Assembly (NCBI RefSeq): GCF_030013595.1
Contig: NZ_CP122774.1
From: Escherichia coli
GTDB taxonomy: Bacteria > Pseudomonadota > Gammaproteobacteria > Enterobacterales > Enterobacteriaceae
Direction: 5' to 3' (one strand)
DNA: 5,732 bases
The notes below the pieces were generated by a model, which saw nothing but the letters and a program-made list of their open reading frames with translations, was not told the DNA's origin and made no database searches. Below are positions 1,120 through 5,732 of the stretch, piece after piece (the stretch's first letter is position 1; each line of letters begins with the position of its first letter). The translations under genes were made by a program, and so were the position numbers.

Positions 1120-1227
1120 TGTAAACGAAAAAACCACCATGGCAGGTGGTTTTTCGAAGGTTATTTAATCCTGGCAGATTGAATAACCGTGGTAACAGCC
1201 TTGTGCGAGACGTGTCACCAAATCTGT
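1120..1227 (-). ncRNA. RNA I antisense copy-number control RNA (about 108 nt, approximate ends)
   Basis: The minus-strand terminator is the complement of gtaaacgaaaaaaccaccatggcaggtggttttt (1121-1154). The 5' end aligns with the conserved ccaaat.ctgtcc block (1218-1230). The minus-strand promoter (-10 complement agtgta at 1234-1239, -35 complement cttcaa at 1258-1263) matches the pMB1 RNA I promoter layout. Loop sequences differ from ColE1/pMB1. Confidence 0.7.
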
Positions 1228-1635
1228 CCTTTCAGTGTAGCCTCACTAAGGCCACCACTTCAAGAACTTTGAATACATCTCTCGCACATCCTGTTTACCA
1301 ATGGCTACCGCCACTGGCGATTTTTCGTGTCTGTTCCGGGTTGGACTCAAGATGATAGTTACCGGGACAACGTGGTAGTCGGGCTGAACGGGGGGTTCTT
1401 GCATACAGCCCAGCTTGGAGCGAACTGTCTAAACGGAACGGGACGTGGTGATTTAGGTAAAGCTTCCACCACAACACGGATGCCGCAGGACGGGAACAGG
1501 AGAGCGCAAGAGGGAGCCGCCAGGGGGAAACGCCTGGTATCTTTAAGTCCTGTCGGGTTTCGCCACCTCTGACTTGAGCGTCGATTTTTGTGATGCTCGT
1601 CAGGGGGGCGGAGCCTATGGAAAAACGCCAGCGGC
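1121..1635 (+). ncRNA. RNA II pre-primer transcript (approximate ends)
   Basis: Inferred from the promoter at 1084-1112 and the conserved origin switch region near 1620-1640. Ends are not determined. Confidence 0.65.
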
Positions 1636-1799
1636 GTGGCCTTCTCTGGGTTCTTGTTTTTTGCTCACATGTTTCTTTTGGTGTTATCCCCTGATTCTGT
1701 GGATAACCGCATTACCGTCTTTGAGTGAGCTGATACCGCTCGCCGCAGCCGAACGACCGAGCGTAGCGAGTCAGTGAGCGAGGAAGCGGAAGAGCGTCG

Positions 1800-1940
1800 G
1801 AAGTTGCATTTTCTCCTTACACATCTGTGCGGCATTTCACACCCGGCATGGCGCACTTTTCATACAATCCGCACTGATGCCGCATGGTTAAGCCAGTATA
1901 CACTCCGCTATCGCTACGTGACTGGGTCATGGCTGCGGCC
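1800..1940. other. bom/oriT (basis of mobility) region of a ColE1-type plasmid, expected to contain the nic site
   Basis: Near-identity, by recollection, to the pBR322/ColE1 bom segment (catacaatc.gc.ctgatgccgcat.gttaagccagtatacactccgctatcgctacgtgactgggtcatggctgcg), lying between ori and rop as in ColE1. Confidence 0.7.
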
Positions 1941-2018
1941 TGACGCGCCCTGACGGGCTTGTCTGCTCCCGGCATCCGCTCACAGACAAGCTGTGACCGT
2001 CTCCGGGAGCTGTATGTG

Positions 2019-2210
2019 TCAGAGGTTTTCACCGTCATCCCCGAAGCGTGCGAGGCAGCTGCGGTAAAGCTCATCGGCGTGGTCGTGAAGCGATTCACAG
2101 ATGTCTGCCTGTTCATCCGCGTCCAGTTCGTTGAGCTTTTCCAGCAGCGTTAATGTCTGGCTTCTGATAAAGCGGGCCATGTTAAGGGCGGTTTTTTCCT
2201 GTTTAGTCAC
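2019..2210 (-). CDS. rop: Rop/Rom, RNA I-RNA II interaction modulator (63 aa)
   Basis: Translation MTKQEKTALNMARFIRSQTLTLLEKLNELDADEQADICESLHDHADELYRSCLARFGDDGENL matches the ColE1/pBR322 Rop sequence as I remember it. Here the start codon is GTG (complement of 2208-2210), with GGAGG 6 nt upstream on the minus strand. Confidence 0.95.
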   Translation of the reverse strand: MTKQEKTALNMARFIRSQTLTLLEKLNELDADEQADICESLHDHADELYRSCLARFGDDGENL

Positions 2211-2250
2211 TGATGCCTCCGTGTAAGGGGGGATTTCTGTTCATGGGGTA

Positions 2251-2598
2251 ATGATACCGATGAAACGCGAGAGGATGCTCACGATACGGGTTACTGATGA
2301 TGAACATGCACGGTTACTGGAACGCTGTGAGGGTAAACAGCTGGCGGTATGGATGCGGCGGGTCTGTCTGGGTGAGCCGGTTGCCCGTTCCGGGAAGCTG
2401 CCGACACTGGCACCGCCGTTACTGCGCCAGCTGGCTGCCATCGGGAATAATCTGAATCAGACGGCGAGGAAGGTGAACAGCGGGCAGTGGTCTTCCGGTG
2501 ACCGGGTTCAGGTGGTGGCCGCACTGATGGCCATCGAGAGAGAGTTGCGCAGCTTACGGCAGGTCGTCAGGGAACATGGAGCGCGGGATGATAGTTAA
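2251..2598 (+). CDS. mbeC: Mobilisation protein MbeC (MobC-like relaxosome accessory protein). Alternative in-frame starts at 2260 and 2275 (MLTIRV).
   Basis: Translation ...MLTIRVTDDEHARLLERCEGKQLAVWMRRVCLGEP... is the MobC/MbeC N-terminal pattern; the 5' part is the same sequence retained as a remnant in pBR322. Stop TAA at 2596-2598 overlaps the mbeA start. Confidence 0.88.
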   Translation: MIPMKRERMLTIRVTDDEHARLLERCEGKQLAVWMRRVCLGEPVARSGKLPTLAPPLLRQLAAIGNNLNQTARKVNSGQWSSGDRVQVVAALMAIERELRSLRQVVREHGARDDS

Positions 2599-4330
2599 GT
2601 TTCATGCCAGGGGAAAAGGCGGTGGCAGTGGTCCGGTTGATTACCTGCTGGGAAGGGAGCGTAACCGGGAAGGGGCAACGGTGCTTCAGGGTAATCCGGA
2701 AGAAGTCCGGGAACTCATCGATGCCACGCCATTTGCGAAGAAATACACGTCAGGTGTTCTGTCGTTCGCGGAGAAGGAGCTGCCGCCTGGAGGGCGTGAA
2801 AAAGTGATGGCGAGCTTTGAGCGTGTACTGATGCCCGGTCTCGAGAAAAATCAGTACAGCATCCTGTGGGTGGAGCACCAGGACAAGGGACGGCTTGAGC
2901 TGAATTTTGTCATTCCGAACATGGAGCTACAGACCGGAAAACGCCTCCAGCCGTACTACGACCGGGCAGACAGGCCGAGAATTGATGCCTGGCAGACGCT
3001 GGTTAATCACCATTACGGGCTGCATGACCCCAACGCCCCGGAGAACCGCCGGACGCTGACCCTTCCTGATAACCTGCCGGAAACGAAACAGGCGCTTGCA
3101 GAGAGCGTCACACGCGGGATAGACGCTCTTTATCATGTCGGGGAGATAAAAGGCCGTCAGGATGTGATTCAGGCGCTCACAGAGGCAGGGCTTGAAGTGG
3201 TCAGGGTGACGCGAAGCAGTATCAGCATTGCAGACCCGAACGGTGGGAAGAATATCAGGCTGAAAGGAGCATTTTATGAGCAATCTTTTACAGACGGGCG
3301 CGGAGTTCGAGAAAAAGCTGAAAGAGAGAGCCGAATCTACAGAGACAATGCTGAACGACGAGTTCAGCAAGCTCGAAAAATCTGTAAGCAAGGCTGTGAC
3401 ATCAAACGAGACGAAAATCAAAGACGCTATAGCCCTGTTCACAGCTTCGACAGAGGAATCACTGAAAAAACACCGGGAAGGGGTGAAAGAGGCGATGATG
3501 CAGCACAGGAAGGACGTGTTAAAGCTGGCAGGGAATACGGGCATGATGTTACTGGGGATGGTCCTTTTCCTGTTTACCGTGAGTGGCGGGACGCTCTGGT
3601 ATCTTGGCGGGCGGATACAGGCGAACCTGGAAGAAATCAGGATACAGGAAGAAACATTGCAGAAACTGAACGCGAAGACATGGGGCGTGGAGTTTGTGCA
3701 GGACGGGAGAAGGAAATTTCTGGTCATCCCGCAGGGGAAATCGGCAACGGTGATTCCCTATCAGGAGAAGGACTGGGTACAACTGACGGAGTGACACAGA
3801 GTGACGGAGCTGGAAAGACATTTGCTGAACGCCTTAGAGCAACTGCAACAGGACTATATGCAGCGGCTGAGCGAATGGGAGAGCGCCTTCGTGGAATTGC
3901 AGAAAATGTTTTCGCTTACGCAACGGGACAACGCGATGCTGAACGAGCAGGTCATGCAGTTGAGTCAGCAGGTGCAGCACTTGAGCGAGCGGACAGAACG
4001 CTTGAGCCAGTTATACAGCGAGAACAGGAGATAAGGGACGAACGGCTGATACAGGAGCGCGAACATGAGTTATCCCTGGAGCGTGAGCGCCAGCTGGAAA
4101 TACAGGAACGGACACTGGATGGCATGGTAATCAGAGACAGGCTAAAATGTTGTCAGCGCGTTTCCGGTGCATTTTTTGGGATAATGGTTGGTTCGGGGGC
4201 ACCGGGAACGCGCTTCAGTCAGACCTTGCTGAAAACACAGGAACGCGTTAAAACGCATACGGGCGCGATTCTGGTGTGTCTTTTGTTGCTGTGTTTTGCC
4301 TCTATTGCCAGATCGCGCTCATTCCCCTGA
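2588..4330 (+). CDS. mbeA: Mobilisation relaxase MbeA (ColE1-type). 580 aa from ATG 2588 (the ORF track starts 4 codons earlier at 2576); 3' boundary should be verified.
   Basis: N-terminus MIVKFHARGKGGGSGPVDYLLGRE is the canonical relaxase start. The ORF overlaps the mbeC stop by 11 nt and contains mbeB and mbeD in the +1 frame, as in ColE1. The hydrophobic C-terminal tail (ILVCLLLLCFASIA) is atypical. Confidence 0.85.
   Translation: MIVKFHARGKGGGSGPVDYLLGRERNREGATVLQGNPEEVRELIDATPFAKKYTSGVLSFAEKELPPGGREKVMASFERVLMPGLEKNQYSILWVEHQDKGRLELNFVIPNMELQTGKRLQPYYDRADRPRIDAWQTLVNHHYGLHDPNAPENRRTLTLPDNLPETKQALAESVTRGIDALYHVGEIKGRQDVIQALTEAGLEVVRVTRSSISIADPNGGKNIRLKGAFYEQSFTDGRGVREKAERESRIYRDNAERRVQQARKICKQGCDIKRDENQRRYSPVHSFDRGITEKTPGRGERGDDAAQEGRVKAGREYGHDVTGDGPFPVYREWRDALVSWRADTGEPGRNQDTGRNIAETEREDMGRGVCAGREKEISGHPAGEIGNGDSLSGEGLGTTDGVTQSDGAGKTFAERLRATATGLYAAAERMGERLRGIAENVFAYATGQRDAERAGHAVESAGAALERADRTLEPVIQREQEIRDERLIQEREHELSLERERQLEIQERTLDGMVIRDRLKCCQRVSGAFFGIMVGSGAPGTRFSQTLLKTQERVKTHTGAILVCLLLLCFASIARSRSFP
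3276..3794 (+). CDS. mbeB: Mobilisation protein MbeB (172 aa), nested in the +1 frame of mbeA
   Basis: 172-codon ORF with AGGAG (3265-3269) 6 nt upstream of ATG 3276. Position and length agree with ColE1 mbeB; it has a central hydrophobic segment (MMLLGMVLFLFTVSGGTLWYL). Confidence 0.8.
   Translation: MSNLLQTGAEFEKKLKERAESTETMLNDEFSKLEKSVSKAVTSNETKIKDAIALFTASTEESLKKHREGVKEAMMQHRKDVLKLAGNTGMMLLGMVLFLFTVSGGTLWYLGGRIQANLEEIRIQEETLQKLNAKTWGVEFVQDGRRKFLVIPQGKSATVIPYQEKDWVQLTE
3801..4034 (+). CDS. mbeD: Mobilisation protein MbeD (77 aa), same frame as mbeB, GTG start 6 nt after the mbeB stop
   Basis: GTG at 3801 with GGAG 10 nt upstream. Coiled-coil-like sequence (LEQLQQDYMQRLSEWESAFVELQKMF...). 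Position corresponds to ColE1 mbeD. Confidence 0.7.
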   Translation: MTELERHLLNALEQLQQDYMQRLSEWESAFVELQKMFSLTQRDNAMLNEQVMQLSQQVQHLSERTERLSQLYSENRR

Positions 4331-4435
4331 ACTTCTGTTTTCCCGCTCCGGTCCCCGTCTTCTTCGCTTCCGAAAGCATGAAAAAAATCCGTTTCAGCTG
4401 TCTCTGGCTGGCAATTCCTGCGTGATTCACATGGC

Positions 4436-4577
4436 TGCATAGCTATGCATGTGGTTAAAATTTACCGGGTGCGATCGCGGCAGTTTTTCGGGTGGTTTGT
4501 TGCCATTTTTACCTGTCTGCTGCCGTGATCGCACCGAACGCGTTTCTGCGGTGCGGGCAACGGATGTTATGGTAAAT
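4436..4577. other. cer/psi-like Xer site-specific recombination (multimer resolution) site: accessory region with a palindromic box plus XerC/XerD core
   Basis: Core GGTGCGGGCAA-CGGATG-TTATGGTAAAT (4550-4577). The right arm is identical to the cer/dif XerD arm TTATGGTAAAT as I recall it, and the left arm is GGTGCG..CAA like the XerC arms. A perfect 14-bp palindrome TGCATAGCTATGCA (4436-4449) lies about 100 bp upstream, where cer carries its ArgR box. Confidence 0.55.
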
Positions 4578-4693
4578 ATTGGTGCTCTGGGATGAAGCGA
4601 AAATAGGCTTTTTTTCGCTATTTTAGCCTGTTCAGGAACGGCAAGAGTAAATATCTGGGAGCATGAAGCTCGTTAACCTGAATGGAGATCCTG

Positions 4694-4858
4694 ATGATGG
4701 ACAAAGATACCACCACCCTAAAACGCACTTTGGCTCATAATCGAGCCTTTAGCGATAATATTAACCGCAGTGGCATAGCCTGGTGCTATAACACTGAGAT
4801 TGTACTCGCTGCTTGTGAGGCGATTGAAGCCGAACTACAACGGCGAGGATGTTTGTAA
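4694..4858 (+). CDS. Small hypothetical protein (54-55 aa: MMDKDTTTLKRTLAHNRAFSDNINRSGIAWCYNTEIVLAACEAIEAELQRRGCL)
   Basis: Not in the ORF track (below its length cutoff). GGAG at 4684-4687 sits 6 nt upstream of tandem ATG ATG (4694-4699). TAA at 4856-4858 is followed within 10 nt by a strong terminator. Confidence 0.4.
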   Translation: MMDKDTTTLKRTLAHNRAFSDNINRSGIAWCYNTEIVLAACEAIEAELQRRGCL

Positions 4859-4865
4859 CAATAAG

Positions 4866-4889
4866 AAAACCCGCATCAGCGGGTTTTTT
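4866..4889 (+). terminator. Rho-independent terminator
   Basis: aaaacccgc-atca-gcgggtttttt: perfect 9-bp stem, 4-nt loop and a T-run. Confidence 0.75.
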
Positions 4890-4960
4890 AGTCTCTGAGA
4901 CGCGCTACCGCTAAATTATTTTTCTCTCTATCCGCCCTGGCTTGCCCCCTACAACCCCAT

Positions 4961-5007
4961 GGAGCACAAGGAGCACAGGGAGAACCATCGAGCACAACGA
5001 GCACCGC
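4961..5007. repeat. Five tandem degenerate 9-bp repeats (G)GAGCACA-type
   Basis: ggagcacaa | ggagcacag | ggagaaccatc | gagcacaac | gagcaccgc, read directly from the sequence, immediately upstream of the AT-rich tract. Confidence 0.6.
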
Positions 5008-5009
5008 CT

Positions 5010-5190
5010 TCCTCTTATAAATCATTATTAATCATATAATTAAACAACTTCATTGTAATATATATTACTTTTTATGTTTTTAAATGTAATGTTTATTGCG
5101 ATTTAGCTTGTTTTTAACTCTATTTTTTCAGATGAGAACAAGCTGCCAGCAATGAATAACTATTTGATTTTATTGGTTTTTTCAATAAAT
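5010..5190 (+). promoter_or_regulatory. AT-rich leader or promoter tract upstream of the terminal gene (exact promoter not mapped)
   Basis: About 180 bp of strongly AT-rich sequence with several TATAAT-like and TTGA-like hexamers (for example ttataaatcattattaatcatataatt and ttgtaatatatattac), contrasting with the GC-rich backbone. Confidence 0.35.
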
Positions 5191-5219
5191 TAGTGTCCAT
5201 AGACAAACGGGAGACGACT

Positions 5220-5732
5220 ATGTCCGCAAGAGCAAGAAAAGCAGGTAAGAGAAATCAGTCAGAACGACGTCAGGATTTGATTGAAAAATTGTGGGAAGAC
5301 GACGAAATCGATACTTGGCATCGACTTGAAAATGATGGGTACTCAACAGTTCCACGTTATTTGCCTTTGATAGGCGATCTCATGGATGGTCTGTCAAAAG
5401 GATCACCATTATCAACAACCTACTTGGCTTTATGGTTCAGGGTTTCTGATGAGGGGTTGATTGAAATAAGAGATAAAGCAGCACTGGCTTTTGAATCAGG
5501 GTTCGCTAGTGAAAGAGGCGTAACTACATGGGCAGGGAGAATGAAAAAGCTAAAAGAACTGGGGTTCATATCCTGTCGTGAAGGCAGCACCGGTGAATTT
5601 CATTACGTGTTAATTGTTCACCCATTAGTTGCAGTCAAAAAGCTGCTTGATGAAGGGATTATCCCTAAAGGAAAGACTTATAACATTTTGTCGGAGCGTG
5701 TAATTGAGGTGGGAGCCTCTTGGGAGGGTTAA
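5220..5732 (+). CDS. Hypothetical winged-helix-like DNA-binding protein (170 aa from ATG 5220; the ORF track starts at GTG 5193). Candidate proximal gene of the two-gene accessory cassette.
   Basis: GGGAG (5208-5212) lies 7 nt upstream of ATG 5220. Basic N-terminus (ARARKAGKRNQSERRQ). The central segment TTYLALWFRVSDEGLIEIRDKAALAFESGFASERGVTTWAGRMKKLKELGFISCREGSTGEFHYVLI has a helix, helix-turn-helix and beta-wing pattern typical of wHTH regulators, Rep proteins or antitoxins. Stop TAA is the last three bases of the window. Confidence 0.6.
   Translation: MSARARKAGKRNQSERRQDLIEKLWEDDEIDTWHRLENDGYSTVPRYLPLIGDLMDGLSKGSPLSTTYLALWFRVSDEGLIEIRDKAALAFESGFASERGVTTWAGRMKKLKELGFISCREGSTGEFHYVLIVHPLVAVKKLLDEGIIPKGKTYNILSERVIEVGASWEG

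Follow-up and report, generated by a model that had tools for sequence, protein, structure and literature searches.

Downstream of the mobilization genes of a small Escherichia coli plasmid, a sequence-only reading had pointed to a Xer recombination site with a 6-bp central region, which raises the question of the family to which the site belongs and of whether the short spacer sets it apart. The window, by which we mean the whole 5,732-nucleotide stretch of DNA that was analysed, corresponds to nearly the whole of a 5.8-kb ColE1-family mobilizable E. coli plasmid, with RNAI on the minus strand at 1125-1226 and genes of the MobC, relaxase (MbeA), MbeB and MbeD types taking up 2251-4330, upstream of the site. 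Drawing on homology, the positions of its elements, the covariation and strand asymmetry of an RNA stem, and the junctions that natural recombination has left at the core, we read the region at about 4370-4577 as a probable ColE1-family multimer resolution site of the cer family, with an mwr/parB-class core that has a 6-bp central region, and we give this reading a probability of roughly 0.9. The feature is an ordinary ColE1-type dimer-resolution site, a very common and uncharacterised allele of a known type. The sequence-only reading was in the main correct, and every feature that it listed is present in the sequence. Several 5775-bp E. coli plasmids are 100% identical to the window over 4380-4620, and matches to the region were found in 1336 PLSDB plasmids (1237 of them mobilizable), hosted mainly by Escherichia, Salmonella, Shigella, Enterobacter and Klebsiella. 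Neither the site nor the RNA is an annotated feature in any plasmid record among the matches listed, and a literature search that included the core and Rcd-region sequence strings found no experimental work on this core or allele. An ORF of 48 amino acids that overlies the site (4449-4595) has no Pfam match and was dismissed as spurious.

Direct reading placed the core at 4550-4577 on the plus strand, exactly where it had been reported, with a predicted XerC-binding arm, GGTGCGGGCAA (4550-4560), the central strand-exchange region CGGATG (4561-4566) and a predicted XerD-binding arm, TTATGGTAAAT (4567-4577). The Xer-core pattern GGTGCGNNNAANNNNNNTTATGNTAAAT matched the window once and with no mismatches, against a chance expectation of 0.01 when up to three mismatches are allowed. 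The arm consensus used in the sequence-only reading held when checked against the ColE1 cer and pSC101 psi records. We read the reference cores from the sequences of four plasmids: ColE1 cer has GGTGCGTACAA, an 8-bp central region TTAAGGGA and TTATGGTAAAT; pJHCMW1 mwr has GGTGCACGCAA, CAGATG and TTATGGTAAAT; CloDF13 parB has GGTACCGATAA, GGGATG and TTATGGTAAAT; and pSC101 psi has GGTGCGCGCAA, GATCCA and TTATGTTAAAC, the central region being 6 bp long in the last three. The XerD arm was part of the search pattern, so its identity across all collected cer-family sites is by construction. The core found here has the layout of the cer family, in which 11-bp arms flank a central region of 6-8 bp (PMC2699498).

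The 6-bp central region had been taken as a departure from the cer family, a view that does not hold up, as mwr and parB also have 6 bp and cores of 6, 7 and 8 bp all occur naturally. Among 23 cer-like loci collected by scanning a single genome of each species for the pattern, the central region measured 7 bp in 14, 6 bp in 5 and 8 bp in 4. CGGATG falls into the subclass formed by mwr and parB, where a 6-bp NNGATG stands beside TTATGGTAAAT, and the 6-bp spacer is an already-known, common variant within the family. The exact 28-bp core, at 100% identity, was present in 559 PLSDB plasmids, compared with 648 for the ColE1 cer core, and the genera that carry it include Enterobacter, Escherichia, Klebsiella, Salmonella and Citrobacter.

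An alignment with cer, psi and mwr, as the sequence-only reading had proposed, found homology to cer, mwr and parB and none to the accessory region of psi. The presumed ArgR/PepA wrapping region extends over 4370-4549 on the plus strand, with an approximate left limit, and thus provides cer-homologous accessory sequence of about 180 bp adjoining the XerC arm, which is the accessory length given for the family (PMC2699498). The whole of this region aligns four-way between the window, cer, mwr and parB, and identity to ColE1 cer reaches 85% over 148 bp (window 4432-4577, E 1e-44), running from the ARG box to the XerD arm. Most PLSDB matches start at query position 53, which is 4432, at the ARG box; upstream of that point, conservation in the four-way alignment is weaker and lies around CATGAAAAA near 4377.

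The perfect palindrome TGCATAGCTATGCA at 4436-4449 was confirmed by direct reading and lies within a predicted ArgR binding site at 4434-4451, to which no strand is assigned. Its placement at the position of the cer ArgR box, as had been claimed, agrees with the alignment: the ARG-box columns read TTGCATAGGTATTCATAC in cer and CTGCATAGCTATGCATGT in the window, mwr and parB also align column for column, and the centre of the palindrome lies 107 bp from the XerC arm, on the upstream side. On sequence evidence, then, the 18-mer supplies the ARG box that cer-family sites carry about 100 bp upstream of the core. The window contains two perfect 14-bp palindromes against 0.36 expected, and at least one occurred in 28% of shuffles; the palindrome by itself is weakly surprising, and its meaning comes from homology and position, by which it is the predicted counterpart of the cer ARG box. 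It fits 8 of the 10 core positions of the E. coli ARG-box consensus, TGAAT...ATTCA, with both half-sites (TGCAT/ATGCA) off consensus.

Compared element by element, the site resembles ColE1 cer in its identical XerD arm, in the matching alignment columns of its ARG box, 15-bp-spacer hexamers and Rcd stem-loop, in its position downstream of mbeD and in its orientation relative to RNAII. It differs from cer in having CGGATG in place of the 8-bp TTAAGGGA, GGGCAA where the XerC arm of cer has GTACAA (two bases apart, GGTGCGTACAA against GGTGCGGGCAA), a perfect TGCAT/ATGCA dyad where ColE1 has TGCAT/ATTCA, a left stem arm that is longer by one base, and CTGCAT in place of TTGCAT at -35. With mwr, likewise an ArgR/PepA-type site, it shares a cer-family accessory region, a 6-bp central region ending in GATG and the XerD arm. 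The differences are the XerC arm of mwr (GGTGCACGCAA), a C in its left ARG half-site (CGCAT), AAAAAC in the columns aligned to the -10 region, and a stem that is another, compensated version (GCGTTTCTGGCGG / CCGTCAGAAACGC). At mwr, as at cer, the Holliday junction that XerC forms needs no XerD for its processing (PMC2699498, PMC7399989). CloDF13 parB offers a 6-bp GGGATG, an identical XerD arm and a homologous accessory region with ARG box and stem, while its XerC arm, GGTACCGATAA, is far more divergent. Judged by these homologies, the site is a cer-type Xer site.

The site had been described as cer/psi-like, and of this description the cer part stands, while the likeness to psi is confined to the length of the spacer and to 10 of the 11 bases of the XerC arm (GGTGCGCGCAA against GGTGCGGGCAA). 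The XerD arm of psi, TTATGTTAAAC, differs at two bases, its central sequence is different, and no significant alignment was obtained between window 4380-4580 and pSC101 6500-6900 (best blastn E 0.11). We know of no Rcd counterpart at psi. Moreover, psi works with ArcA and PepA, not ArgR (bioRxiv 10.64898/2026.02.23.706985). Membership in the psi group was rejected on the non-homologous accessory region and on a core other than GGTGCGCGCAA-GATCCA-TTATGTTAAAC. The further suggestion that spacer length affects FtsK dependence finds no support in what is known of plasmid sites, since those with accessory sequences, the 6-bp psi included, work without FtsK. The chromosomal dif site, GGTGCGCATAA-TGTATA-TTATGTTAAAT, shares the 11-6-11 layout and a XerC arm starting with GGTGCG. 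Accessory sequences are absent from dif, which depends on FtsK (PMC5357621). A dif site would be a stand-alone 28-bp site at the chromosome terminus, and this assignment was also rejected, as the core described here lies on a ColE1-type plasmid beside a full cer-type accessory region.

The family alignment also predicts a Pcer-type promoter on the plus strand at 4435-4461, with a -35 hexamer CTGCAT (4435-4440), a 15-bp spacer and a -10 hexamer TAAAAT (4456-4461); in the same columns, ColE1 has TTGCAT and TAAAAT separated by 15 bp and overlapping the ARG box, and a 15-bp spacer is the published one for Pcer (PMC5935869). TAAAAT is the -10 sequence in 17 of the 26 aligned family members, while the variant hexamers TATGAT and TACAAT preserve TA..AT. 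The -35 hexamer matches TTGACA at 2 of 6 positions, compared with 3 of 6 in ColE1. Transcription would start 7 nt past the -10 hexamer at G4468, the first base of the stem described below. A generic promoter and terminator scan of 4300-4750 returned nothing, and it missed the predicted promoter because it allows only spacers of 16-18 bp, whereas the spacer is 15 bp here; after the stem, we saw no clear intrinsic terminator or U-tract. Our coordinates for Pcer and Rcd derive from the sequence and from indirect statements in the literature and not from a printed map. An alternative ColE1 Pcer, TGAACG-15 bp-TACAAT, overlapping the XerC arm, was rejected: neither the window nor mwr conserves its -10, the resulting transcript would come from the DNA to the right of the core, a part without shared sequence among family members, and the covarying stem would be left unexplained.

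The orientation of these elements follows the same pattern. RNAI is encoded on the minus strand and hence RNAII on the plus strand, which is also the strand of the ARG box-to-core order and of the predicted RNA, as in the fixed orientation relative to the origin seen in the cer family; in all ColE1-like plasmids, rcd and RNAII are transcribed in one direction (PMC2831885). At the level of sequence, the site carries both a predicted Pcer with a 15-bp spacer and a predicted structured RNA of about 70 nt.

This RNA corresponds to an inverted repeat lying between the palindrome and the core, the right arm of which (4520-4535) is where it had been placed; the left arm, given as 4469-4484, is really at 4468-4483, one base off. 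The arms are 16 nt long and 94% complementary, with one G·T, and are separated by 36 nt. The repeat had been proposed to encode an Rcd-like small RNA, a proposal with which covariation, fold and strand asymmetry all agree. On an alignment of 26 distinct family members, RNAalifold returned a long stem and a small inner hairpin. In the window, the closing stem pairs 4468-4484 with 4519-4535, both on the plus strand, and the small inner hairpin is formed by the block GGGTGGTTTGTTGCC...TTTTAC (4490-4513, plus strand), whose columns are invariant or nearly so among the 26 sites. Helices 2 and 3 were 97-99% paired and varied little. Taking 23 pairs over 26 sequences, 95.6% of the cells were paired, and changes on both sides were seen in 12 of the 23 pairs, which 1 of 500 shuffles reached; GCGATCGCGGCAG/CTGCCGTGATCGC against GCGTTTCCGGCGG/CCGCCGGAAACGC is one compensatory example. 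The covariation score was 0.456, compared with 0.06-0.16 for controls in which partners were slid by 1-3 columns. Read on the plus strand, the non-Watson-Crick cells comprised 99 G·U and 1 A·C, and therefore the pairing has been selected in a plus-strand RNA and not in duplex DNA.

The 70-mer at 4468-4537 has a minimum free energy of -43.6 kcal/mol (z = -8.6), and its ColE1 and mwr equivalents have the same fold shape. To our knowledge, Rfam holds no Rcd family, and a scan of the whole window with Rfam release 15 (E <= 1) gave no family over 4430-4580. The length reported for Rcd, about 70 nt (PMC5357621, PMC5935869), equals that of the stem-loop here, and in ColE1 the published location of Rcd is the region homologous to this one (PMC4393325, PMC2831885). 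We conclude that the two arms of the repeat make up the stem that closes an Rcd-like plus-strand RNA of about 70 nt. We predict this RNA at 4468-4537, its 5' end set by the -10 hexamer and its 3' end lying somewhere between 4537 and 4548, and it occupies almost exactly the range of 4470-4540 that the sequence-only reading had singled out. An RNA from the minus strand was ruled out by the 99:1 wobble asymmetry and by the orientation rule of PMC2831885. Separately, the cer-like site of an E. coli O157:H7 plasmid (CP051822) appears to be a natural hybrid within the Rcd region, with a ColE1-type left stem arm and a right arm of the type found in locus L008 and Salmonella, and 4 of its 17 stem pairs are mismatched by eye.

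Plasmid comparisons revealed a mosaic junction at 4578-4579, to which no strand is assigned and where identity to sister plasmids stops. The 5128-bp plasmid NZ_CP080231 shares the backbone at 1185-4578, is identical through 4578, where the XerD arm has been passed by one base, and is unrelated from there on; many PLSDB matches likewise end at query position 198/199, equivalent to 4577/4578. This break in similarity at the XerD arm is consistent with crossovers at the site. The accessory backgrounds beside which the identical core was found number at least 7 and its right flanks about 11, and the accessory sequence of the window occurs almost unchanged with a 7-bp core in locus L013 and an 8-bp core in locus L020. 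One accessory sequence with several core lengths, together with one core with many backgrounds, indicates that cores and accessory regions have been reassorted in nature.

The segment by which the window differs from its 5128-bp sister, 4579-5732 plus 1-1184, represents cargo and contains small ORFs with no Pfam match (4682-4858, 5193-5732 and 1-495), an sraL-like RNA and an HTH/AlpA-like ORF, while nothing in the window matches the remaining segment of the sister plasmid, in which a ParA-family gene lies. On the cargo side, to the right of the junction, 4597-4627 holds a short A/T-rich inverted repeat (GCGAAAATAG / CTATTTTAGC, run AGCGAAAA...TTTTTTCGCT) that is terminator-like, although the terminator scan made no call there. 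Positions 496-629 on the minus strand gave a full-length Rfam match to sraL, an Hfq-binding sRNA (RF01408, 84.7 bits, E 5.6e-18), and lie between the ORF at 1-495 and the HTH_17/AlpA-like ORF at 528-1070. DNA similar to this stretch was found at 23 places in 5426 complete E. coli genomes, all on plasmids and none chromosomal, and it looks like a diverged plasmid-borne gene for an sraL-like sRNA.

Other loci in the collection deserve mention. Three plasmids that bear a full cer-family site also have a second, orphan Xer-like core, namely pJHCMW1 (~455-485), CloDF13 (minus strand, XerD arm from 4393) and the plasmid of locus L017 (~3325-3353); in these, the central region and XerD arm are intact (e.g., CGGATG-TTATGGTAAAT), the XerC arm is degenerate and cer-like accessory homology is absent, and they could be remnants of earlier Xer-mediated joins. 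In Cedecea sulfonylureivorans, a 360-kb contig, very large rather than a small plasmid, has at 3873-3962 a stem region resembling that of cer, together with an 8-bp core (AGTGCGTACAA-TTAGGGTG-TTATGGTAAAT), with no recognisable ARG box or -10 upstream. Assemblies that carry the labels Streptococcus, Corynebacterium, Microbacterium, Bradyrhizobium, Arthrobacter, Bacteroidales and others also yielded cer-family sites, on short contigs (L009, L010, L011, L013, L014, L018, L021, L024-L027 and others), and these most likely represent contamination by ColE1-type plasmids or vectors and not genuine presence.

Several other explanations were weighed against an ordinary cer-type site with an embedded RNA gene. 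The inverted repeat could instead serve as a cruciform in the DNA, as a dyad for protein binding or as a terminator of read-through from the mob operon, given that it follows the mob genes on their own strand and that the minus-strand fold also beats shuffles (z = -4.6); the excess of G·U over A·C, a stem that no U-tract follows, the conserved -10 box 7 nt upstream and the Rcd published for the homologous ColE1 region make such readings highly improbable. Another concern is that the site is crippled or condition-dependent, like mwr or fpr, so that, although recognisably of the cer family, it resolves poorly in E. coli when conditions are ordinary, and stability is provided by other means. CGGATG is one base from the CAGATG of mwr, the right ARG half-site ATGCA is of the mwr/parB type and not the ATTCA of ColE1, and at normal osmolarity mwr itself is a poor dimer-resolution site in E. 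coli (PMC2699498). Against this, the XerC arm starts with GGTGCG, as in cer, dif and psi, and not with the GGTGCA of mwr, the exact core persists in 559 plasmids from several genera, and it marks recombination junctions. The ARG box, moreover, has a T where mwr has a C (cTGCAT against cGCAT), and this C-to-T change in the ArgR site of mwr is said, in work by Pham et al. from 2002, to improve resolution. The altered site, mwrT, has served in the dimer-resolution substrate pKD3 (PMC7399989). All in all, we consider a crippled site rather improbable.

We regard as unlikely, too, that the topological selectivity of the site is relaxed, so that it recombines between molecules independently of accessory factors and serves in evolution mainly as a docking point for module swaps in the ColE1 family. 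Such relaxed selectivity is reportedly a property of the laboratory cer-parB type II hybrid. The spread of one core over at least seven unrelated accessory regions and some 11 right flanks, the presence of one accessory sequence on 6-, 7- and 8-bp cores (window, L013 and L020), and the sister-plasmid junction at the XerD arm would all fit, as would the cointegrate formation and plasmid evolution credited to Xer sites (PMC6764390). However, this mosaicism is no proof of relaxed selectivity because rare intermolecular events suffice to produce it and because it is seen around the 8-bp ColE1 core as well, and conservation of the full accessory region, ARG box included, favours an accessory-dependent function. 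The XerC arm is psi-like, and psi still needs accessory factors. The same psi-like XerC arm, combined with a 6-bp spacer in an ArgR-type context, might give behaviour unlike that of both cer and mwr, for example a complete XerC-then-XerD exchange or a relaxed cis-selectivity, a prospect that we hold to be doubtful; if true, it would make the core a widely shared docking point that drives the exchange of modules between ColE1-family plasmids from many genera of Enterobacterales. A literature search on the central regions of cer, mwr and psi in relation to XerC returned no paper.

Taking the site as a cer-type resolution site, we infer protein binding, catalysis, promoter activity and RNA function from its homology to cer and mwr. 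In the cer family, recombination depends on XerC, XerD, ArgR and PepA and is confined to sites that are directly repeated in cis. In a dimer, two directly repeated copies of the site would synapse, with ArgR bound at 4434-4451 and PepA wrapping the accessory DNA of about 180 bp so that only intramolecular sites pair. XerC would bind 4550-4560 and XerD 4567-4577, and XerC would exchange the first pair of strands at the edge of CGGATG, giving a Holliday junction. Its completion, which yields monomers, may fall to XerD, as it does at psi, or to processing that is independent of Xer, as it does at cer and mwr. In dimers, the weak 15-bp-spacer promoter overlapping the ARG box would transcribe the Rcd-like RNA, which would fold into its long stem around the conserved inner hairpin. 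The Rcd of ColE1 is produced when cells contain dimers; it binds and stimulates tryptophanase, which raises indole and delays division until the dimer is resolved (PMC4393325).

ColE1-type dimer-resolution sites, the ArgR box, the embedded Rcd RNA and the 6-bp-spacer variants mwr and parB were already established, and as a discovery the site therefore matters little; its value lies mainly in annotation. Sequenced plasmids carry its core about as often as they carry the textbook cer core, and the sharp breaks in similarity at the XerD arm are a marker for tracing the swapping of cargo in small mobilizable plasmids.
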